A DNA stretch of 64,000 bases from assembly GCA_049580385.1 (NCBI GenBank), contig JBAUPV010000030.1:769974-833973 (forward strand), given 5' to 3'. Source of the stretch: Desulfobaccales bacterium. GTDB lineage: Bacteria; Desulfobacterota; Desulfobaccia; Desulfobaccales; 0-14-0-80-60-11. Below the pieces are notes generated by a model, which saw only the letters and a list, made by a program, of their open reading frames with translations, was not told the origin of the DNA and made no database searches. Positions 1,824 through 62,376 of this stretch are shown in pieces. Position 1 is the stretch's first letter; each line of letters begins with the position of its first letter. Made by a program: the position numbers and the translations under genes.

Positions 1824-2165
1824 CTAGTAGATCGAATACCAAATTCTGGCCACGATGAGCAGCCCCAGGCCCACCAGGCCCCAAATGAGCAGCCGCTGGT
1901 ATTTGACCCCCACCAGGTTGAAATCGAGCAGGATGACCCGCAGTCCCAAGGCGGCATGGAAGGTTACCACCAACAGGAGCAGGAATTGAATGATGGGCTT
2001 GTAGGTCAGAGCGAGGTGCAGGGCCAACAAGACGATGATGGCCAGGGCCGAGAGACGCTGCCACAGCCAGGCCCACATGCCCACCTGGGTCCCCTCCCGG
2101 CGATGAGGGTCGTACTCCCCCCAGGCCAGAGGTTTCCGGTACTCGATGGGAATATCTCGCGCCAT
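1824..2165 (-). CDS. Small 3-TM membrane subunit, SdhC/SdhD-like anchor
   Basis: 113 aa with SD TAGGAG and three hydrophobic helices. HAALGLRVILLDF resembles the H-x3-G-x-R-x4-D signature of SdhC/SdhD anchors. The gene lies between the flavoprotein and Fe-S genes. Confidence 0.6.
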   Translation of the reverse strand: MARDIPIEYRKPLAWGEYDPHRREGTQVGMWAWLWQRLSALAIIVLLALHLALTYKPIIQFLLLLVVTFHAALGLRVILLDFNLVGVKYQRLLIWGLVGLGLLIVARIWYSIY

Positions 2166-2235
2166 TAAATGACTCCTATACTGCCCAAGGGCGTCGGGCC
2201 GCCAGGAAAAGCCGCAGGTTCCGGGCTGCCATCGC

Positions 2236-3960
2236 CTATTTTCTATACCCCTGGCACTCCTCCAAAGTCTTGTGCTTGAAGACTACGGGCTCCCTGCGGG
2301 CCAGGGGCAGTCCGTCCTCGCCGCGGCTCAGGTAGATATTGAAGAGCCCGTAGTCGTCCCGCTGCTCCGGAAAATCCTGGCGGAAGTGCGCCCCCCGGGT
2401 CTCCTCCCTCAACCTGGCCGCAAAAGCGGTCATCCTGGTGGTGTCCACCATGCTAATAAGGTCCAGGAAGGTGTTGTACATCATGTTGTACGCCGCGCCC
2501 CCGGTGACGCTAACGTGCTCCAGTTCTGCGGCGATGGCCTCAATCTCATTTAGAGCCTCGGAAAGATCCGGCTCCCGGCGGGCCACCCCGACCTCGTTCC
2601 AGTTCAATTCCTGGATCTGCCTGCGCAGGACGAAGGGGTCGGACCCGGAAGCGCGGCCGAAAGGAGCCTGGAGCCGGGCCATGGTTTCCTCCACCTGGCC
2701 GCGCCGGGTCTCCTTGACGGTCCGGTTGCCATTAACCAGGTACTGGCCCAGGGCCTTGCCGGTCAACCGGCCATAGACGCAGGAATCGCAGATGCCATTC
2801 CCGCCCAGGCGGTTGGCGCCGTGGACACCGCCGGAATCTTCACCGGCCACAAAAAGCCTTTCCGGGGTGGCCTTACCGCTGGTGTCGATCAGCGCGCCGC
2901 CCATGTAGTAGTGCGCCGTGGGGCCTACCGGAACACGGCCCTCGGCCAGGTCGTAATTGAACTGCTGGCAACGTTCGGCCATGCCGGGGAAATTCTCCAG
3001 GACGAAATCAGCCCCGAGATGGGAGGCGTCAATGTGTACCCCCCCCTCGGGGCAGGCCCGGCCAGCCATCATCTCCAGGTAAGAAGAGCGGCTGACGACA
3101 TCGCGGGTGGCTCGCTCGCCCACCTCGGGGGCGTAGCGAAGCATGTAGCGCTCGCCGACCCCGTTATAAAGGTAGGCGCCGGCGCCCCGGAGGCCCTCTT
3201 CCAGGAGGGCCCCTGCCACCACGCTCCCCGGGACGATGAGGCCGGTGGGGTGGAATTGGAGCATCTCCATATCCCGCATCACCGCCCCGGCCCGGTAAAG
3301 CATGGCGAGGCCGTCCACGGATTTCTCCGGCCCCGGGGCGTGGAAGCGGTAATGGGTGGGCCCTCCGCCGGTGGCCATTAGGGTGGCGGCCGCCTCGGCG
3401 ACGATGAACTCGCCGCGCCGCATGTTTAGCAGCAGCGCCCCTGTGACCATCTCCCCCCCCTCGTCCAGGAGCAGTTCGACGGCCCGGCATTCCTCCAAGA
3501 CCGGGATGCGGCGCTTCATGACCTGCTCGGTGAGGCGGCTGATGATCTCGATACCCGTGAGGTCGCCCTTGTGAACCGTACGATCGAAGACCTGGCCGGC
3601 GAAGGCCTTTTGATGGATGGTGCCGTCGGGATTGCGGTCGAAGAAGCAGCCGAATTTGGTTTCCATCTCCTTGATGGTGGGAGTGGCCTCTTCCACCAAG
3701 GTCTTGGCCAGGTCCTGGTCGTTGAGGTACTGGCCGCCCTTGAGGGTGTCCATGAAATGTTTCTCATGGGAGTCCTCAGAGTTCAACACCACGTTGAAGC
3801 CGCCTTGGACCATGCGGCTGCAGCCGCCTTTGCCCCGGAGCGCCTTGGTGACGATGAGGATGTTCAGGTCCGGATTGCGCTCCTGGGCATAGAGCGCCGC
3901 CATTTCGGCCGCGGCCCCCATGCCGATGATGAGCAAATCGGCCTTGACTTTGGTTACCAT
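2236..3960 (-). CDS. FAD flavoprotein subunit, succinate dehydrogenase/fumarate reductase family
   Basis: 574 aa with SD GAGGAG. The DLLIIGMGAAA dinucleotide fold, LQFHPTG, TRDVVSR, HGANRLGGN and ETRGAHFRQDFP are SdhA/FrdA signatures. The position of the covalent-FAD His (R-S-H-T) reads G-C-S-R, so FAD is probably non-covalently bound. Confidence 0.9.
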   Translation of the reverse strand: MVTKVKADLLIIGMGAAAEMAALYAQERNPDLNILIVTKALRGKGGCSRMVQGGFNVVLNSEDSHEKHFMDTLKGGQYLNDQDLAKTLVEEATPTIKEMETKFGCFFDRNPDGTIHQKAFAGQVFDRTVHKGDLTGIEIISRLTEQVMKRRIPVLEECRAVELLLDEGGEMVTGALLLNMRRGEFIVAEAAATLMATGGGPTHYRFHAPGPEKSVDGLAMLYRAGAVMRDMEMLQFHPTGLIVPGSVVAGALLEEGLRGAGAYLYNGVGERYMLRYAPEVGERATRDVVSRSSYLEMMAGRACPEGGVHIDASHLGADFVLENFPGMAERCQQFNYDLAEGRVPVGPTAHYYMGGALIDTSGKATPERLFVAGEDSGGVHGANRLGGNGICDSCVYGRLTGKALGQYLVNGNRTVKETRRGQVEETMARLQAPFGRASGSDPFVLRRQIQELNWNEVGVARREPDLSEALNEIEAIAAELEHVSVTGGAAYNMMYNTFLDLISMVDTTRMTAFAARLREETRGAHFRQDFPEQRDDYGLFNIYLSRGEDGLPLARREPVVFKHKTLEECQGYRK

Positions 3961-4097
3961 ACGCTCCTCGGGCCTACCCGGGATTTTAGGGCAGCGAGGG
4001 TTGGGGTCTTAAACCTCAGGTGCGGTAATCAGCCTGGGGTTGCGTGCCAATGGGCTTCCAGCCAGTGCCACCCCAGGCCTTCAGGCTAATGATGCGA

Positions 4098-5261
4098 TCA
4101 AGCGCTCCGGTAAAGCTTGGTAAAGACAAACTCCCGGTGCCCCAGGGCCTCAGTGGCAGTCAGGCGGCCGTTGGCGGTCCGCCGGGCCATCTCCAGAAGC
4201 CGGTCACCCGATTGATCCAGGGTCAATTCTCCGCGCAGGATGGCCGAGCAATCGTAATCGATGTGCTCGGACATGGTCTTCACGGTCAAGGGGTTGGCGG
4301 AGAGCTTGATGACCGGCAGGATGGGGTTGCCGCAAATGTTGCCCTGGCCGGTGGGGAAGAGGTGCACCACGAAACCGGCCGCGGCCCACAAGGTGACCGC
4401 CTCGGCCGCGGCCGAAGAAGTATCCATGAACCAGAGTCCGGGGCCGGTGGGGGTTTCGGCCGGGGCCAGCACGCCCACGTATTTAGACTTCTTGCCGATC
4501 TTTTGGAGGTTCCCGAAGGCCTTCTCCTCGATGGTGGTGAGTCCCCCCCGGATGTTGCCCTTGGTGGGCTGGGAACCGGAGAGATCATCAGTCTTGTTGG
4601 CCTGGATGAAGTCGTCGTAATCTTTCCAAATCTGGTAAAACTGCTCTCCGACGGCCGGGGTGGCGGCCCGTTCCTTACAAACCATCTCGGCGCCGGTGAT
4701 TTCGGAGGTCTCCCCGAAAGAAGTCGTGGCGCCCGCGGCCACCAGTTTGTCGATGGCGTTGCCCACAGTGGGGTTGGAGGCCAGGCCCGAGGTCGTGTCG
4801 GACTCGCCGCATTTCACGGAAACCCAGATCTCCGACAGGTCCACTTCAACGCGTCTCAGTTCCGAGGCCCACTGCAGGTATTCTTTCGCCTGGCGGCTGG
4901 CTGCGGCTATGGTGGTGAGGTCTCCGTGACGCTCGATATCAAACCCGGTTACAGGCTTTCCCGTTTTTTTTATGCCTTCCACCACGACGTTGGTCCAATC
5001 GGGCTCAATCCCGATGACCACCGCGGCGGCGACATTGGGGTTGGCGCCCATGCCGATAACGGTGCGAAAGAAAAGCCGCAGGTCTTCCCCAAATTGGAGG
5101 CGCCCGTAGGCGTGCGGAAGGGCCAGGGTGCCCTTGATATTGTTGGCCACGGCCTCGCAGGCCGCATTGGAAAGATCATCCAGGGCCAGGATGACAACAT
5201 GATTACGGACGCCCACCCGGCCGTTTTCACGGCGATAAGCCAAAACTTTGCCTAAACTCAT
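4098..5261 (-). CDS. UxaA/GarD/SuyB-family dehydratase (or sulfo-lyase) large catalytic subunit
   Basis: 387 aa. [25 protein letters not shown] and [13 protein letters not shown] recall the C-terminal catalytic part of altronate/galactarate dehydratases and sulfolactate sulfo-lyase SuyB. The ATG is 1 nt after the small-subunit stop. The substrate cannot be assigned from sequence. Confidence 0.8.
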
Positions 5262-5262
5262 C

Positions 5263-5541
5263 TTACCACCTCTTCGTCTTCAGGTTGTGGATATGGACAT
5301 GGGCCCCTTTGGAGAAGGGGGCGGAGACCACGCCAATATCATGGCCGTATTTGATCACCGTATCGCCCGGTTTCATGGCCTGAAGGGCAATCTTGTGGCC
5401 CAGGGGGATGTCCCCCAGGGCCTTAACTTCCACCGGCTCCTGGTTGTCCATGTACAGGCCTTTGATGGTCTCATTCGCCTTGATGTCCACCGTCGCCACG
5501 CCGACTGTGTCACCCTTTTCATGAACCAGAAATTGAATCAT
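5263..5541 (-). CDS. SAF-domain small subunit of a split UxaA/SuyA-type enzyme
   Basis: Track ORF trimmed to ATG 5541 (AAGGAG SD 7 nt upstream). [20 protein letters not shown]...IPLGHKIAL...GAHVHIHN is the SAF/beta-clip domain found at the N-terminus of UxaA or as a separate SuyA. Confidence 0.75.
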
Positions 5542-5711
5542 GCACGCGCTCCTTGGTTTGGTTAAGGTTGGGTTCTGCCACACTGGCAGCTACTTAATGG
5601 GGAGAGGAGGGCAGCTTGCCTCTAAAACCCCGGTCCGGGTGAGCGGCGAGTCCTCAATGTGGAGAAACTGTCCTGGCCACGACTCCCGGCTAGATTGTTC
5701 TGAGACGATGA

Positions 5712-5727
5712 TGCACAGGCCATGCCA
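5712..5727 (-). promoter_or_regulatory. Candidate sigma-54 (-24/-12) promoter
   Basis: The minus strand reads TGGCATGGCCTGTGCA. The GG and GC dinucleotides sit at canonical spacing (consensus TGGCACG-N4-TTGCA, 2 mismatches). It lies ~170 nt upstream of the SAF-subunit ATG, and a GAFTGA-type activator is encoded 1.2 kb upstream on the same strand. Confidence 0.5.
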
Positions 5728-5814
5728 TTGGTCGCTAAACGAGGGAACCGCTCTGGTGGCGCGAATCATGGCGGATTTGGCGTCCCGCTCGCCAGGCCCA
5801 AATGAGACCAATTT

Positions 5815-5840
5815 TCGGCTCTGAGCCGACTATTCGGCTC
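5815..5840. promoter_or_regulatory. Candidate enhancer (UAS) palindrome
   Basis: TCGGCTC-T-GAGCCGA is a perfect 7+1+7 palindrome, followed by a third TCGGCTC half-site. It is centred ~95 bp upstream of the -24 box, a typical distance for a bacterial enhancer-binding protein site. The function is inferred only. Confidence 0.3.
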
Positions 5841-5931
5841 GGCGTCATCTTGGCCTTGTGGCGCCTAAGCTTGCAGGCCAAACGAGCCAATTAATTTTGC
5901 AGATGGGGCGCGTTTTTAGGCCCCGGAGAGT

Positions 5932-6753
5932 TTAGGGGGCAGTGCAAGGTGGATCAGGAGGGCAGGGGCGCCTGCCAACCCGATAATTGCGAAAGAGCCG
6001 TAAGGTCTGCCGCACGGTGGCCGCCAACCGGAAGCGGCCTTGAGGCGCGAGGCTGTTGGCGGTGGCCTCGCAGAGGCAGGCGCCGAAGGACAATCTGGAT
6101 ATGCCGGCGGCCATGGCCCCCAGGATATCCCGGGGAGTGAGCAGGCTGGCATCGTGGAGGGACAGCCCGCCGGGCACGCTTTGGCGGAGCCGTCTCAGGA
6201 GTTCCATATCCAATCTGAACCCTCGCCTGGTGTCGAGGGGCAGGGATACGGCCAAGGAGTCGATACCGGTTTCGAGGACAAATTTAGCCGCCAGAGCGCA
6301 GATGAGGCATTGGCCCGCGGAGTCCTTACCGAAATCAAAGAAGGCTCCGATCGCTCCTTCCAGGGGGACCCGGGCTCCCGCCGCCAGGTTCACCGCTCTC
6401 GCGGTCAGTTTCACGTTGCTTGCGAGGGGCAGAAAAGAGCCGTCGAACATAACCGTGGAAAAGCCACAATCGAGGGCTATACTCACCAGGTCGAGGTTAC
6501 GGGCATGGCTCAAGATCACCATTACCGGAACCGAGGCGCGTTCCGCCACGGAGGTGGCTACCCCGCTGAGAAGCTTGATAGCCGGCGGCGCCACCAGGTC
6601 GGCATTGACGCACAGCACCACCGGCGAGTCCTCTTCCTCGGCAGTGGCAACGACAACCCGGATGCTCTCCTGGTCCTTGACGCTGAAAGCCGCAAGACAC
6701 CCCTGGCGGCGGGAAGGCCTCGCCAGCGCCTGGACACGGCCGCTGTCCTGCAT
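5932..6753 (-). CDS. Divergent class II ketose-bisphosphate aldolase-family protein
   Basis: Trimmed to ATG 6753 (AGGAGGAG SD). It shows a recognisable but divergent F_bP_aldolase-like pattern: AAFSV..ESIRVVVATAEEEDSPVVL, VPVMVILSHARN, GFSTVMFDGS, LEGAIG. The activity is uncertain. Confidence 0.5.
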   Translation of the reverse strand: MQDSGRVQALARPSRRQGCLAAFSVKDQESIRVVVATAEEEDSPVVLCVNADLVAPPAIKLLSGVATSVAERASVPVMVILSHARNLDLVSIALDCGFSTVMFDGSFLPLASNVKLTARAVNLAAGARVPLEGAIGAFFDFGKDSAGQCLICALAAKFVLETGIDSLAVSLPLDTRRGFRLDMELLRRLRQSVPGGLSLHDASLLTPRDILGAMAAGISRLSFGACLCEATANSLAPQGRFRLAATVRQTLRLFRNYRVGRRPCPPDPPCTAP

Positions 6754-57042: not shown

Positions 57043-57172
57043 GGGAGTTTTATCCCAGCCCCTCAATATCTAGATATTGCGCCTACTTAGGAAAACTAGG
57101 GGTCTGTTCAGCAATCGGTTATCCATTTAAAAGACTGATTTGTACCCCCCCTTTTTCAAGGCGATATTATAC

Positions 57173-57201
57173 TTGACAGACCTGGAAGCATGATATAAGC
57201 T
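57173..57201 (+). promoter_or_regulatory. Inward-facing promoter-like sequence in the left IR
   Basis: TTGACA-N15-TATAAG (or N17-TAAGCT) lies upstream of the DUF3800 gene. Confidence 0.35.
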
Positions 57202-57254
57202 CTTGTCACGCTTGCGGAAATCGGGTATAATATCGCCTCTTAGGAGAAGGGGCG

Positions 57255-58175
57255 ATGGGTATACTTGGTAATTTTAACAAGCTTTTCCAGGAATTACAGG
57301 GTGGTGAAAAGACCCTCCCTGGAGATTATTTCCGGTTTTTTGAGTGCGGCTTGCCAGCCCGTGAAAGAAACAAAAGGTGGATTGTGGCGCTAAAAGCCTA
57401 CATAGATGCTAGCGGGATGTCGAATATAAGGAAAGACCCCATTTTGCTTCTTGGCGGATTTGTTGGCGTTGCCCAAACCTGGGCGAATTTTTCAGATGCT
57501 TGGCAAGCAGAGCTTGATAACCCTCCAACCATTGAATATTTTAGTCTAAATGAAGCATTTCATCCCAAACATGATAGTCAGTTCAAGGGATGGGATAAAC
57601 AGGATATTATGCTTAAAATCAATAAATTAGTAAATGTGATTAAGTCAACTTTCCCCTTGGGGCGTGTTGCTTCATATATTGATAAAAGAGAGTATGGCCA
57701 ATTAATTATAAAACAAATCCCTAAACGTAGAAAGGACAATCCATATTGGTTATGTTTCCAGCATCTAATTGTTAATGTGGTTGCTAAACAACATAAATCA
57801 AAGTCTCAATATAAAGTTCCTATTGATTTTATATTCGATGAAGAGGGTGAATTGGGTTACGATTGCGCCAAGTGGATGAATTATTTTAAAATGACCGTGA
57901 TTCCTAAATATGCCCTTCCTTATTTCGGCACCATAACTTTTGGTGATGATAAGAAGATTGTTGCGCTACAAGCTGCCGATTTATATGCTGGATTATACAG
58001 GCGGCACCTATTTGAAAATAAAGCTATTTTTATGCCAATGCCGAAAGAATTGCAATTACTACAAGAAATACCTGCGATTTATGATCAACCAATAAACTTG
58101 AGAGATGTATCAATAGATATACAGAAAGAAGAAATCAGACAACTTATGAAAAAGAAGCGTTCTGACTCTACTTAG
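57255..58175 (+). CDS. DUF3800-like protein (passenger gene)
   Basis: 306 aa. The N-terminal AYIDASG (cf. Y.DESG) and the C-terminal VALQAADLYAG (cf. LQ.AD) are the two motifs I associate with DUF3800. Confidence 0.55.
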   Translation: MGILGNFNKLFQELQGGEKTLPGDYFRFFECGLPARERNKRWIVALKAYIDASGMSNIRKDPILLLGGFVGVAQTWANFSDAWQAELDNPPTIEYFSLNEAFHPKHDSQFKGWDKQDIMLKINKLVNVIKSTFPLGRVASYIDKREYGQLIIKQIPKRRKDNPYWLCFQHLIVNVVAKQHKSKSQYKVPIDFIFDEEGELGYDCAKWMNYFKMTVIPKYALPYFGTITFGDDKKIVALQAADLYAGLYRRHLFENKAIFMPMPKELQLLQEIPAIYDQPINLRDVSIDIQKEEIRQLMKKKRSDST

Positions 58176-58317
58176 TAGCACGTTTCTTCTTAGCAATCTT
58201 ATCAAATGCTTTCTCAAAGCCTTTCTTTGAAAGGGGTTCTTCGATCTTCTTGGCAGCCTCGATAAACCGGGCGGCCTGTTCTTTGTCGTCTGGCTCGGGT
58301 TTCTTTTTCCTGCCCAT
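58168..58317 (-). CDS. 49-aa Lys-rich ORF at the end of the transposase/R-M operon
   Basis: Own translation: MGRKKKPEPDDKEQAARFIEAAKKIEEPLSKKGFEKAFDKIAKKKRATK. It starts 5 nt after the S-subunit stop. It replaces the implausible 70-aa track ORF in another frame. Confidence 0.4.
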   Translation of the reverse strand: MGRKKKPEPDDKEQAARFIEAAKKIEEPLSKKGFEKAFDKIAKKKRATK

Positions 58318-58322
58318 ATCAA

Positions 58323-59255
58323 TCACCGTCCATCTATAAAAGCGGCGTAAGGTGTCGTTTCAATAATAGCGGCGATGGCATCTTCATCGACCATTCCGAG
58401 GGCTGTAGCTGGTAATGGAACGGTGACGCGTTCCAATTTTGCTTTATAGCATTTCCGATAATAAGAAAAACGCCATTGTTCGCGTTTGAGCATTACTATG
58501 ATTAGCGATTGAGTAGCGGGACTCATAGGAACCTTTGGCGTACATATTGCCACATCGTCTTTAGCTGCAAATTTATATGGATGATACTTTGCGCTCAATG
58601 TACTACCATTAAAAGCGATAGTCATCCGATTTTCATACACCCCTTTATCAACCTGGAAATATCCGCAAACCCCATTATCTAAATTGCCACACGATATAAT
58701 GGGAATATTCCCAGCGGGAAGGACGCTGTAATTGTGATAATCGCCGGGAATCAAGTCAAAGAGCGATCCGAGAGCAAACCGTTGTAGGTGAAACTGCACA
58801 TTATCTTGTTTTGGCTTATTCATTTTGGGCATGTACTCTATGACTGGGAAACGCACATTGCTGGGAATATGAGCTGGAACCATAAGGCGAGCAATCCGAT
58901 CCGCCGTTGTCTGCCAGTACCATGAAAATCTCCATCGAACAGCAAGATTGATATAGCTCGCCATGTATGCAAGCTGCTCGGGCCGCAGTGGATGTTTTGG
59001 CTCCAAGACTACCAATCCATTGCCCGCACGTCCGCAAGCCACAAACGGAGGCGCTTGCACGCTCGCTTCACAAAACGCAGATACAGCAATTCCCATGAAT
59101 CCAAAAACTCTATCTGTTGGGAGCGGGGTAACAAGACCAACCACTGCGTTGTCTGATAAGCCATTGCCGACGTATGGCACGGGACCCGCCTTGTATCTAT
59201 TGAACAAATCAGATTTGGCTCGATGAAGATCAAACAATGCGTCGATACGTTTCAT
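58323..59255 (-). CDS. Restriction-modification specificity subunit (two TRD-like halves; BcgI-B-like)
   Basis: 310 aa with an internal duplication: IDALFDLHRAKSDLFNRYKAGPVPYVGNGLSDNAVVGLV versus LGSLFDLIPGDYHNYSVLPAGNIPIISCGNLDNGVCGYF. The ATG overlaps the methylase stop (ATGA). Confidence 0.65.
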   Translation of the reverse strand: MKRIDALFDLHRAKSDLFNRYKAGPVPYVGNGLSDNAVVGLVTPLPTDRVFGFMGIAVSAFCEASVQAPPFVACGRAGNGLVVLEPKHPLRPEQLAYMASYINLAVRWRFSWYWQTTADRIARLMVPAHIPSNVRFPVIEYMPKMNKPKQDNVQFHLQRFALGSLFDLIPGDYHNYSVLPAGNIPIISCGNLDNGVCGYFQVDKGVYENRMTIAFNGSTLSAKYHPYKFAAKDDVAICTPKVPMSPATQSLIIVMLKREQWRFSYYRKCYKAKLERVTVPLPATALGMVDEDAIAAIIETTPYAAFIDGR

Positions 59256-61180
59256 TTGTAATCCTCCGCATTGATTTCTTTCCCGAACCGAACAAGGAAT
59301 GCAGCAGTCTGCCTAGCCATGTCATCCACGGCCGTCCGCAATGTCTCTTCCGTAAGCGGTTCGGTATCTAAGTATGCCTCTGGAACTATCTCTAAAAGCG
59401 GGTCTGAGTAGTCGATAGGCGCAGTCTTGCAGAACTTTGGAATATTCACACTGTTACCGCCGGGGTGTGAAATAAACGCTCGCAATAAAGGTAAAACTTC
59501 AGGTAATTGATTCTTTTCGATTCGGGGAGGCCGCATTTCCGATGCAGGCAGTCGTTTTGATTTCAGTTTTAAGTGACCATCGTGGGCAACTCTTGCCCAG
59601 AAAACATCTTGTTTCGGCGGATGAGGGATACCTTTTTTAATAATGATCGCGGCAACTTGCTTTTGGGCTGCCGGATAGAATAGCTCTTCTGGTAAGCTGA
59701 TTACTGCTAATAACGTGTTTGAGGCCAGTAGTTCATCTTTGCGCCAAGTTCTTTCGTCATGAGCACCAAATAATGAACCAAGAGGCAGAAGCGAAAAGAG
59801 AATCTTTCCATCCACCATTGTAGATAGGGCTTGTGAAACGAACCTGTATTCCTTTTCGGACCCTTTGGAGGCAAACGGCGGATTCATCAATACTCGCGTA
59901 ACAGCTTCTTCTCCTATTGGTGGCTTTGTGGCCGTAACAATGGCAGAGGCGTTCCCTTTGACCGTATGTTTTTTTAGAAAAGTATTAAAGGCATTCCGTT
60001 CATCAATGTTATTTTTACCGTCGCCCCTAAAAATCATGTTAACTATCGCTAATGCCGCAACCGTGGAAGCAGGTTCAGAACCGAAAATGTTGTATTTTTT
60101 GAAGCGCTCGATCTGTGTTGGTGTGTTACGCCGTACATAGTCAAACGCCGCAACTAGAAATCCTCCAGTGCCGCAAGCCGGGTCATATACAATATCTTCA
60201 CTCGATATGCCTACCGCCTCGACTGCAAAGCGCGTAATGTGACGAGGAGTCAACACAATTCCAATTTCTTTTGCGCCATTCCCATACTTAAGAAAGACCT
60301 CGTAAAACTGACCAAGCACATCAGTACTGGAATTCATTGCAGCCCGAATATTGAGATTCAAGAGTTCCTGAATGGTCATGACTAAAGCGCTCTTGAATTT
60401 GGTGTGGTTGTCGCTATTTGATGGTGGTATAAGATGCACAAATGGCGCAAATTCCGGTTTTTCGTGCTGTTTTAGAACACTATCACTGCGTGCATTAATG
60501 TCAGCAATTAAAATAGCTAACTTGGTATCGAGATCGGGCGGTTCCTCTATGACAGAAAGCAGGAGCGCCGCAATCGTTTTTGCCCGATCGTTTCTTTCAA
60601 TACCGCCGCTGTGAAGAATTTCATTGATTCTCTGGGCAGTATTCAAAAAAAGTAGCGGAGGAGGGATAAAGTCATGAACATCCGAGATTTGACCACGCAG
60701 AAGAATGGCTGTTTGCTGCGGCGAAAGTAACCCAGTTGCGATCTGCCCGTTGATAGTGACATCGTTCCACTTCCCACCAATTAACGCCTTAGTGCGAATG
60801 AGGTAGCCATGTTCTTCGCTACCAGCGACGCCGGTTGCCAAAAATGCGCGCACCTGCCCTGGGGAATCATTGATTTTGACTGCGTAGTCGTCTATGGCCT
60901 CCTGGATGGCTTGATCTTTTTGCCTTCGTGATGCTTTAGCCTCAATAATCCACAGAACATTCTCTGAAAGTTTGACAATATTTTCGGGGCGCATCTGTCC
61001 AAGGGCATTTTTAATTTGGGCGTGTGCAAGGCATTGATTCTGAGTCCAAACTTGTCCGCTGCCGACCTTACTTGGATCGCGTACAATCCAACCCAAATCG
61101 CGAAGCTGACGACGGATGAACTCATAGGCTTCGACTTCGGTCTCTTTGGCCTTCTTCATTTTGCCATCCATTACTTCCAA
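59252..61180 (-). CDS. Fused PD-(D/E)xK nuclease / N6-adenine DNA methyltransferase (type IIB/IIG, BcgI-A-like)
   Basis: 642 aa. The N-terminus RPENIVKLSENVLWIIEAKASR fits the E...ExK nuclease motif. The SAM motif is VYDPACGTGGFLV and the catalytic motif is VLMNPPFASKG. Confidence 0.8.
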   Translation of the reverse strand: MEVMDGKMKKAKETEVEAYEFIRRQLRDLGWIVRDPSKVGSGQVWTQNQCLAHAQIKNALGQMRPENIVKLSENVLWIIEAKASRRQKDQAIQEAIDDYAVKINDSPGQVRAFLATGVAGSEEHGYLIRTKALIGGKWNDVTINGQIATGLLSPQQTAILLRGQISDVHDFIPPPLLFLNTAQRINEILHSGGIERNDRAKTIAALLLSVIEEPPDLDTKLAILIADINARSDSVLKQHEKPEFAPFVHLIPPSNSDNHTKFKSALVMTIQELLNLNIRAAMNSSTDVLGQFYEVFLKYGNGAKEIGIVLTPRHITRFAVEAVGISSEDIVYDPACGTGGFLVAAFDYVRRNTPTQIERFKKYNIFGSEPASTVAALAIVNMIFRGDGKNNIDERNAFNTFLKKHTVKGNASAIVTATKPPIGEEAVTRVLMNPPFASKGSEKEYRFVSQALSTMVDGKILFSLLPLGSLFGAHDERTWRKDELLASNTLLAVISLPEELFYPAAQKQVAAIIIKKGIPHPPKQDVFWARVAHDGHLKLKSKRLPASEMRPPRIEKNQLPEVLPLLRAFISHPGGNSVNIPKFCKTAPIDYSDPLLEIVPEAYLDTEPLTEETLRTAVDDMARQTAAFLVRFGKEINAEDYK

Positions 61181-61183
61181 GGT

Positions 61184-62110
61184 TTAGCTATGAGTCGTTT
61201 GGTAAGTGAGCCTCTTGCCCTTGACCCCTTGCAGCAGTTTCTCGGCCCGCTCTGAATCATCAACACCCCTGGCGATGCGCTTGTTATAACGGAAATCAAA
61301 CTCGGCCAGATAGCGGTGAAGATGCTGTTTCTTGCAATGCTGATATACCCCCTTCATACCACGCTTGAAGATGGAAAAGAAGCCCTCCACGGTATTTGTG
61401 TGAATTGAGGGATCGGCCTGAGAAACATATTCGCCCTGGCCGTGGCCCACGGCTCCATGCTCCGCAAAATGTTCATCCATGTGTTTATACTGCCCGGCGT
61501 CATCGGTCATCACCCTGGCTTCACGGGCAATATTTTCTTCCAGGATCGGCACAATGGTAGCAGCACTTAAACTGTCTATCACCATGCTCCGGGCTTCGCC
61601 GGATTCCCGATCCAACAGGGATAGCACCTTGCGCTTATGGGCGTATCCCTGTTTTACCGGCATGTTGGCTTCATTCCAGAGAAAAGTTTCATCCACTTCC
61701 ACAATGCCGCCCCCGGAGCCGAAGGGAGCCAGGCTGCCCTCTCTCATGGCTTCCCGGATACGGTGCCCCATGAACCAGGCGGTTTTGAGAGTCACCCCAA
61801 GGGTCCGGTGAAGCTGATTGGCGCTGAAACCTTTCTTTGAGGAGCAAATCAGATACATAGCCTGGAGCCAGAGGCGCATAGGGACATGGCTATCTTCAAA
61901 GATGGTCCCGATCTTGACAGTAAAATGTTTTCGGCATACATAGCACTTGTAGGTGCCGATCCGGGTGCTTTGGCCGTTCATCTTCCCGGTGCGCTCCCGG
62001 GTGCCGCAGTGGGGGCAAACTGGACCCTTGGGCCACAGCCGGGCCTCGACAAAGGCATAAGCAGCCTCTTCATTGAGGAAACGGGGAGCGGAAAAAATTG
62101 ACTTGCTCAT
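61184..62110 (-). CDS. IS1595-family transposase (zinc ribbon + DDE)
   Basis: The start is set at ATG 62110 (AAGGAG SD, downstream of the IR promoter). It has the zinc ribbon CPHCG...CYVCRKHF and an ISXO2-like DDE region (VEVDETF...). Confidence 0.85.
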   Translation of the reverse strand: MSKSIFSAPRFLNEEAAYAFVEARLWPKGPVCPHCGTRERTGKMNGQSTRIGTYKCYVCRKHFTVKIGTIFEDSHVPMRLWLQAMYLICSSKKGFSANQLHRTLGVTLKTAWFMGHRIREAMREGSLAPFGSGGGIVEVDETFLWNEANMPVKQGYAHKRKVLSLLDRESGEARSMVIDSLSAATIVPILEENIAREARVMTDDAGQYKHMDEHFAEHGAVGHGQGEYVSQADPSIHTNTVEGFFSIFKRGMKGVYQHCKKQHLHRYLAEFDFRYNKRIARGVDDSERAEKLLQGVKGKRLTYQTTHS

Positions 62111-62131
62111 GGCTATCTCCTTGTTAAACAT

Positions 62132-62160
62132 ACTATAACCATTCGTTTCAGGTCTGTCAA
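62132..62160 (-). promoter_or_regulatory. Sigma-70 promoter inside the right IR driving the transposase operon
   Basis: The minus strand reads TTGACA-17 nt-TATAGT, followed by AAGGAG and ATG 62110. Confidence 0.5.
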
Positions 62161-62376
62161 GTATAATATCCCGTTTTTCAAAGGGGGACTTAGGGGGACT
62201 TCACATGCCAAATCGAGCCTTCCAGTCCTGATTTTATGTCAAGCTCATTATAAAACACTCCACTGGCAGACAATAATTTTCAGTGGGAGGCGCACCCAAA
62301 TTCATCCTGACCGGAACCGGACTCCCAAAACCCTCTTCGTTGACATTTCCGGGGATTCTGGTAATTTTGGCCCCAC

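Follow-up and report, generated by a model that had tools for sequence, protein, structure and literature searches.

A probable transporter insertion sequence of the IS1595 family, with a type IIB-like restriction-modification cargo, inserted in a hairpin of a Desulfobaccales chromosome

The 64-kb stretch of DNA from a Desulfobaccales bacterium analysed here (64,000 nt of contig JBAUPV010000030.1; hereafter the window) contains a 5-kb block in which genes for a transposase, a putative restriction-modification (RM) pair and a DUF3800 protein lie between inverted repeats. This raises the question of whether the whole block is a transposon that carries its cargo as a unit, as an earlier note made from the sequence alone had proposed, or a resident insertion sequence (IS) into which the RM genes were inserted in place. 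We regard positions 57160-62173 as very probably an intact transporter IS (tIS) of the IS1595 family, located in the chromosome and carrying a type IIB-like RM pair as cargo.

The element is 5,014 bp long, and its limits were recovered as the earlier note had drawn them (Table 1). Its two 25-bp terminal inverted repeats (IRs) are identical at 23 positions, and the same 8-mer lies directly outside both. The 22-nt IR core was found at the two element ends only in the window, and none of 100 shuffles matched. The AT-rich interior described before was also confirmed, the GC content dropping from 0.65-0.70 in the flanks to ~0.53 over the transposase gene, with 0.32-0.50 in the remaining parts of the element. 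The ends, the duplication and every open reading frame (ORF) are intact. There are five ORFs, arranged as the note described: the genes for the transposase, the RM subunit, the specificity (S) subunit and a 49-aa protein follow one another in this order in one direction, and the DUF3800 gene is convergent with these four. The start codons of the transposase and RM genes had to be moved, however. The transposase starts at MSKSIF rather than at the first ATG, public assemblies recording the 308-aa form only and the 315-aa form having no exact match. For the RM gene, ATG 61159 is the most likely start, because public assemblies call it there and homology to a related element (L095, see below) begins there; the gap after the transposase gene would therefore be 24 nt, not the 3 nt of the note. 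The RM and S genes, between the transposase gene and the small ORF, are genes unrelated to transposition within the IRs, the feature by which a tIS is recognized. A megablast search with the 5-kb sequence gave no match among plasmids or phages.

Table 1. Features of the element and of its insertion site (positions in the window)
Feature	Position	Strand	Detail
Left half of target hairpin (CCCCCTTT arm)	57147-57159	.	includes left TTTTTCAA
Target duplication TTTTTCAA	57152-57159 and 62174-62181	.	perfect, 8 bp; adjoins both IRs
Terminal inverted repeat, DUF3800 side, GGCGATATTATACTTGACAGACCTG	57160-57184	+	25 bp; same IR type in 16 metagenome stretches
Sub-terminal stem-loop	57160-57238	+	terminal 13-17 nt pair with inverted copy 57225-57238; inner hairpin AAGCATGA...TCACGCTT
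Predicted sigma-70 promoter TTGTCA-17-TATAAT, DUF3800	57203-57231	+	11/12 consensus match only; -10 box within inner inverted copy
DUF3800 protein, 306 aa, YIDASG motif	57255-58175	+	Pfam PF12686 9.6e-9, 36.5 bits against a cut-off of 21
Conserved Lys-rich protein, 49 aa, core K.KPEPDD.EQ.ARF.E.A	58168-58317	-	ends transposase operon; distal border of cargo slot
Specificity (S) subunit, 310 aa	58323-59255	-	PADLOC Specificity_II 5.2e-8; Pfam Methylase_S weak, 0.0077
RM subunit, 635 aa, nuclease-like N-terminus fused to gamma-class N6-adenine methyltransferase	59252-61159	-	P58 E59...E73 A K75; NPPF 426-429
IS1595-family transposase, 308 aa from MSKSIF	61184-62110	-	zinc ribbon C32/C35/C56/C59; DDE D140/D203/E242
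Predicted promoter TTGACA-17-TATAGT, transposase operon	62132-62160	-	11/12 consensus matches; -35 box inside IR
Terminal inverted repeat, transposase side, CGGGATATTATACTTGACAGACCTG	62149-62173	-	near-copy of GGCGATATTATACTTGACAGACCTG on complement
Right hairpin arm AAAGGGGG	62180-62187	.	overlaps right TTTTTCAA (62174-62181)
REP-like tail GGGGGACTTAGGGGGA	62183-62198	.	overlaps right arm

The transposase generated hits on DDE_Tnp_IS1595 (PF12762, 4.1e-32) and Zn_ribbon_IS1595 (PF12760, 5.2e-11) in Pfam and on transpos_IS1595 (NF033547, 185.7 bits against a cut-off of 75) in NCBIfam. The four cysteines of the zinc ribbon (CPHC at 32, CYVC at 56) and the catalytic D140, D203 and E242 were invariant across 27 relatives. 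The element may belong to the ISNwi1-type subgroup (DDEK chemistry, GGnnAT..TAT ends); among plasmids, the annotated relatives reach no more than 57% identity and carry no finer label than "IS1595 family transposase". Members of the family have a DDE domain, a zinc ribbon in all subgroups except IS1016, an 8-bp duplication and short IRs (PMC8101967). Pfam, NCBIfam, the 8-bp duplication and the intact ends agree in placing the element in this family, as the note had claimed, and neither of the contrary outcomes that it had named occurred, i.e. assignment to another family with another duplication length, or relatives with the same interior lacking the IRs and direct repeats. The predicted right-end promoter reported there was also reproduced; it precedes AAGGAG and the start codon (ATG, 62110), and its TTGACA is kept in the IRs of relatives. 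A contig classed as viral in IMG/VR (L104, IMGVR_UViG_3300014205_001023; contigs and loci are cited here by L numbers) encodes a transposase 66% identical to that of the window.

The cargo is predicted to be a two-gene RM system of the BcgI/BsaXI-like type IIB. The RM subunit matched N6_Mtase in Pfam (4e-32) and REase_MTase_IIG in PADLOC (7.5e-37), and P58, E59, E73 and K75 were invariant in 30 homologues. A PDB sequence search retrieved matches to the methylase domain only, and BsaXI was reached by fold search: the AlphaFold model of the subunit (pLDDT 77) matched the RM subunit of BsaXI (chain A) in Foldseek with E=8e-13 over 630 columns of 635 residues, and it also matched the type IIG enzymes BpuSI and DrdV by fold. 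The S gene and the RM gene overlap by 4 nt at the stop codon of the latter, and the pairing of the two genes is constant in five other contexts (L095, L098-L100, L102).

Full-length homologues of the RM subunit number in the thousands and occur in many phyla. The nearest (93% aa identity) lies right behind the stop codon of an IS1595 transposase gene in L095 (GCA_052916145.1), where an IS1595-type element with IRs and the 8-bp duplication CTTATTTG occupies positions 1928-6040 between dnaB and rplI. There the RM gene is followed by an S gene and an unrelated 55-aa ORF, and a DUF3800 gene is absent. The RM-S DNA of the two elements is 88% identical over a tract that begins at the RM ATG and ends 6 nt short of the S stop codon, while their transposases are only 42% identical and their flanks unrelated. 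The next nearest homologue (87% aa identity) belongs to an RM-S pair with no IS nearby, and an IS-free cassette is found in L098-L100. By this comparison the RM cassette exists independently and has entered the equivalent position of two distant IS1595 chassis.

What belongs to the element proper and what is cargo was judged from its relatives. A scan of one genome per species yielded 77 loci with transposases 43-84% identical to that of the window, mostly from metagenome-assembled genomes (MAGs) of Desulfobaccales, Desulfomonilaceae and Syntrophobacteraceae, and from Alphaproteobacteria. Complete elements delimited by IRs and an 8-bp duplication numbered 31, that of the window included, and measured 1,990-5,777 bp. 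The gene order of the complete elements is constant: after the first IR come the transposase, zero to four variable genes, a homologue of the window's small ORF (49-59 aa) and a convergent gene encoding 265-320 aa, followed by the second IR. Minimal elements of ~2.0 kb (L021, L022, L026, L031) hold the transposase, small-protein and convergent genes only. DNA likeness between the window element and its relatives was confined to element positions 1-990 (IR and transposase gene, ~80%) and 3856-3993 (small ORF), and in 12 close relatives homology ends at the transposase stop codon and restarts at the small-ORF start, leaving a slot of 38-2,884 nt. Because homology breaks off and resumes at these borders and the gene order is constant, the transposase, the small ORF and the DUF3800 gene (or a HEPN-like gene elsewhere) are best read as a conserved chassis, and the RM and S genes alone as exchangeable cargo. 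No repeat, att-like site or conserved border sequence was found at the slot borders in the 12 relatives, and the cassette borders likewise carry no repeat or att-like site.

The two accessory chassis genes recur among the relatives. Homologues of the small ORF were recovered by tblastn at 33 related loci, with changes in excess at the third codon position (3473 vs 2323 and 1913); the family spans 45 protein clusters, all annotated as "hypothetical" and none with a Pfam domain. The last, convergent gene is DUF3800-like in 11 elements (homologues stand at the equivalent position in L038, L046, L051, L067, L078, L110 and L113) and belongs to a family termed c2 in 13. Neither the 49-aa ORF nor the DUF3800 protein generated hits in PADLOC, NCBIfam or PHROGs. 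In the literature, DUF3800 proteins have an RNase H-like domain and are tied to mobile elements, defence loci and structured RNAs, their function being unknown (PMC10910872, PMC13594972, PMC5737381). The c2 proteins (270-320 aa) take the convergent position of DUF3800 in L018, L022, L024, L028, L030, L031, L042, L048, L066 and L073, and in L106 a c2 gene lies inside the slot. They carry the motifs EAG.C.A.G.YTA..FH.MR..E (also FHLMR..E) and WRNP..H (Rx4H) and look HEPN-like, with one weak Pfam HEPN match (E=0.004).

A search of JGI metagenomes for the IR core returned 16 stretches, among them complete elements with window-type IRs whose transposases are 93-95% (L106, L110, L112) or 87% (L113, L117) identical to that of the window. 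The slot of the relatives holds an EcoRI-like methylase (6e-133) with a GmrSD_N/HNH protein, an N6_N4 methylase with a BglII-like nuclease, or, as in L109 and L030, a fusion of a methylase with Mrr_cat; these three kinds of cargo occur behind transposases 87-95% identical to that of the window. Elsewhere it holds a HEPN-like and a membrane protein, a protein of the Schlafen AlbA_2 or the RelA_SpoT type or proteins of unknown family, or is empty. Therefore, methylase/nuclease cassettes recur in the slot, and as other cargo stands behind transposases 93-95% identical, slot contents turn over faster than the chassis. At L032:3643-7232, IRs identical to those of the window enclose a split transposase gene, probably inactivated, in opposite orientation together with other genes of 378, 243 and 111 aa.

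The insertion site is a hairpin, as the earlier note had noticed. When the element and one 8-mer are removed, the site reads ...CCCCCCCTTTTTCAAAGGGGG... (longer form ...GTACCCCCCCTTTTTCAAAGGGGGACTTAG...), which forms a GC-clamped, AT-centred hairpin with an 8-bp stem and a 3-nt loop (-12.7 kcal/mol) ~100 nt past the M24 aminopeptidase gene. A canonical intrinsic terminator was considered for this hairpin and rejected, a T-run being absent. Among 38 complete elements, 19 had a restored site whose palindrome is perfect over at least 6 bp, with the duplication at its centre, and in 18 the stem reached at least 8 bp; by comparison, when 20,000 control positions were taken from these loci, 0.49% had a stem of 6 bp or more (binomial P ~4e-34). 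The usual target is C5-6 TTT N3 AAA G5-6 (CCCCCTTT-N3-AAAGGGGG) with varying loops, and the target sites of the relatives are independent, with differing flanks and none with the gene neighbours of the window. Insertion into hairpins thus reads as a family-wide preference, strong though not absolute (19/38), rather than a coincidence. The remaining relatives sit in AT-rich 8-mers, several of which are T-runs behind GC-rich stems. In the left flanks of L036, L045, L046, L047 and L075 the T-run directly follows the stem (e.g. ...CCCCCGCCGGGTCTTTTTTT in L075), and these sites look like intrinsic terminators.

Unoccupied hairpins of the type CCCCTTT-N-AAAGGGG numbered 24 in 1.33 Mb of the relatives' flanks; the window holds the occupied hairpin only and no other of its type. 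In Thermodesulfobacteriota MAGs (L018-L094, L105-L120) the CCCCCTTT-N3-AAAGGGGG hairpins are often paired ~60 bp apart and joined by GGGGGATTTAGGGGGA...AAATCCCCC, for example at L022:13260 and 13320 and at L035:2854 and 2914; the window has this tail too (GGGGGACTTAGGGGGA, 62183-62198). The target hairpins appear similar to repetitive extragenic palindromic (REP) sequences and bacterial interspersed mosaic elements. REP-targeting ISs include IS1397 and ISKpn1 (IS3 family), ISPpu9, ISPpu10, ISPa11 and IS621 (IS110) and ISRm22 (IS4); REP targeting was surveyed in the IS3, IS110, IS4, IS256 and IS5 families, IS1595 not being among them, and for IS1016, of the IS1595 family, the association was 2/17 (PMC1525189). 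We found no report of REP or hairpin targeting for the IS1595 family in the literature.

Signs of recent movement come from population data. The exact transposase together with the exact aminopeptidase was found on 17 contigs from several samples and assemblies, and on all of them the element occupies the same site between the M24 peptidase and RNase II genes, a neighbourhood present in no GTDB relative. There were 0 differences over the 5,014 bp of the element in all 17, vs up to 2.8% divergence in the left 3 kb and up to 1.9% in the right 1.8 kb of the flanks, a divergence that would predict ~100 or more differences within the element. Therefore, the element seems to have recently entered, or swept through, strains that had already diverged, which lends indirect support to the claim that it was recently active. 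The claim that it moves its cargo as a unit finds support in relatives. One MAG (MFD03323.bin.2.103) carries copies of ~2.87 kb and of a variant architecture (c2-like gene, transposase, other genes) at L032:9082-11952, L055:9082-11953 and L034:9018-11894, in three hairpin sites with the duplications TTTTGTAA, TTTTCTAA and TTAGAAAA; these copies provide direct evidence that multi-gene members of the family transpose as units. The RM cassette, as described above, recurs in the L095 element elsewhere. The exact element itself is known from one site only. The search that the note had suggested for further copies and an empty site recovered related elements in other genomes, with no second copy in the window and no empty site in the window or the JGI metagenomes.

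At the DUF3800 end, the terminus is repeated in inverse orientation at 57225-57238 as a perfect 14-nt copy, which the earlier note had rightly reported and had compared to a miniature IR-IR unit. It is neither a chance repeat nor a miniature transposable element with inverted repeats (MITE), being conserved in the closest sub-clade: the resulting stem-loop is kept in seven far ends (L105, L110, L113/L119, L117; weaker in L106 and L112), with the inner copy ~50 nt from the terminus, and the inner hairpin retains its pairing in L110 despite a changed sequence. The copy is absent from more distant relatives, and an Rfam search including the DUF3800 motifs gave no match at E<=1. The inner copy may bind the transposase as a second site, with a coupling to DUF3800 expression, or may be part of a nucleic-acid structure like those beside other DUF3800 genes. 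A role at the DNA level or in transposase binding is at least as likely as one in RNA, because the predicted promoter would start transcription past the 3' arm. A second small hairpin (CGCCTCTTAGGAGAAGGGGCG) spans the DUF3800 ribosome-binding site at 57236-57254; its equivalent in L112/L113 is GCCCCCAAAGGGGGC, which resembles the element's own target hairpin.

Two readings would redraw the limits of the element. In the first, the C-run and G-run flanks are the outer parts of longer IRs, and not the arms of a prior target hairpin, and both ends of many relatives are indeed preceded by CCCCCTTT. In every element, however, the loop bases at one end recur at the other in direct and not inverted orientation, which makes the arms target DNA; moreover, identical unoccupied hairpins are present in the same genomes, and half of the relatives lack such flanks with their IRs unchanged. 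We give this reading practically no weight, and the hairpin arms were rejected as part of the IRs. It is nearly as improbable that the left 79 bp (57160-57238) are a separate MITE abutting the transposon, whose true left end would lie elsewhere. The unit has IR-like termini in inverted orientation, as a MITE would, but no 8-bp duplication surrounds it, no other copy exists in the window, and the match of the inner copy to the IR extends over just 13-17 nt. It is the outer IR that has the duplication beside it, and seven related elements keep the arrangement immediately upstream of their last gene. The MITE reading was rejected on the missing duplication, the lack of a further copy and this conserved position.

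The two remaining readings leave the limits in place and concern movement. An immobile, three-gene IS already resident at the site could have captured the RM cassette in place, in which case the 5 kb would not be a transposing unit. The cassette does occur IS-free and in the unrelated IS1595 chassis of L095, relatives with transposases 93-95% identical hold other cargo, and the exact element is seen at one site only. On the other hand, the ends, duplication and ORFs are all intact, cargo-bearing relatives are multi-copy with separate duplications, and all 5,014 bp, chassis and cargo alike, are invariant across strains whose flanks differ by 2-3%, so the assembled unit appears to have spread as a whole. 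Capture in place is therefore unlikely. A stronger competitor, to which we assign a substantial chance though somewhat short of even, explains the invariance by homologous recombination through the flanks or by strain collapse in metagenome assembly instead of recent transposition. The first flank difference lies at graded distances from the element (left/right), 7/12 bp in L001, 187/65 bp in L003, ~540/790 bp in L008 and over 2 kb in L005, which fits variable tracts. In addition, the M24 peptidase, RNase II and TamB genes are split in L001 and L003 (ENA contigs ERZ25039501 and ERZ25039471), which suggests indel errors of assembly. Against this, the substitutions of L001, 7 bp outside the left duplication and 12 and 21 bp outside the right, lie too near for ordinary two-sided homologous exchange, and given the strong site preference of the family, this locally unique hairpin could plausibly have been entered more than once. 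The invariance may thus reflect repeated insertion into this hairpin, variable-tract recombination or strain collapse. Several points weigh against an intact, recently mobile tIS with an RM cargo. The IRs mismatch at positions 1 and 3, a single chromosomal site is known from the 17 contigs, no empty site was found, and the zero diversity could stem from recombination or strain-collapsed assemblies. The N-terminal nuclease of the RM subunit is recognized by its motif and by a whole-chain fold match with a low TM-score (0.37), without a domain-level match, and the family matches of the S subunit are weak. Transposition, RM activity and co-transcription are all read from sequence.

If the 5 kb is a mobile tIS, its behaviour might be as follows. 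The transposase would cut with an 8-bp stagger centred on the loop of the hairpin, which would put the element into harmless intergenic DNA, and the whole 5 kb would move as one unit and would have entered or swept already diverged strains recently. The operon would be read from the promoter with its -35 box in the IR, so that the RM pair would be co-expressed with the transposase, and DUF3800 would be expressed convergently from its own promoter inside the sub-terminal stem-loop. The RM pair would methylate the host and cut unmodified incoming DNA. RM systems penalise their own loss, and this pair would likewise penalise loss of the element.

As such, the element is ordinary: the IS1595 family has since 2009 been known to include tISs with passenger genes (Siguier et al. 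2009, cited in PMC11891212), and REP targeting is known in five other IS families. Apparently new are a three-gene chassis with one exchangeable slot repeatedly filled with methylase/nuclease cassettes, the preference for GC-clamped hairpins, and the invariance of the element across strains 2-3% different around the insertion; no description of the shared chassis gene set in the IS1595 family was found in the literature. If these observations hold, small ISs would shuttle RM systems among strains of uncultured soil and peat bacteria besides phages, plasmids and large islands, and DUF3800 and the unnamed 50-aa protein family would gain a testable context. A bolder proposal, which we consider doubtful, is that this IS1595 clade is a dedicated shuttle for defence cassettes, with a conserved chassis (transposase, 50-aa basic protein, DUF3800 or HEPN-like nuclease and a structured sub-terminal site), hairpin-seeking insertion and one slot served by a specific exchange mechanism. 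This would account for the finding of one RM cassette, with borders near the gene boundaries, in two chassis whose transposases are only 42% identical, and the accessory proteins would not be passengers but would have a part in cassette exchange, the choice of target or addiction.

Compared with the known tISs of the IS1595 family, the element shares the transposase with zinc ribbon and DDE_Tnp_IS1595 domain, the 8-bp duplication, short IRs starting with GG/CG and passengers inside the IRs (PMC8101967, PMC11891212). It differs in that a second and a third gene, for a 49-59-aa basic protein and a DUF3800 or HEPN-like protein, are conserved with the transposase, that the cargo is confined to one defined slot and is a type IIB-like RM system, and that insertions favour REP-like hairpins. 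With the REP-targeting ISs it has in common insertion into extragenic palindromes, single or paired, which spares genes (PMC1525189), whereas here the 8-bp stagger is centred on the loop and the preference extends to 19 of the 38. The cargo resembles BsaXI and BcgI in its nuclease-methylase fusion of ~635 aa with a separate specificity protein and in its NPPF gamma-class methylase, but sequence identity is 15-16%, the TM-score is 0.37, and the N-terminal domain is without a sequence-level family match. The stem-loop is like the DUF3800-I to -XI RNA motifs (Weinberg et al. 2017; PMC5737381) in being conserved directly upstream of a DUF3800 gene, and unlike them in that its 5' arm is the transposon's terminal repeat and no Rfam model matches. 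Finally, as in integrons and the defence hotspots of mobile elements, a fixed platform offers one position where mostly defence-type cassettes are exchanged behind a platform promoter; unlike integrons, the window-type element has no integrase, no attC-like repeats and no conserved slot-border sequence.

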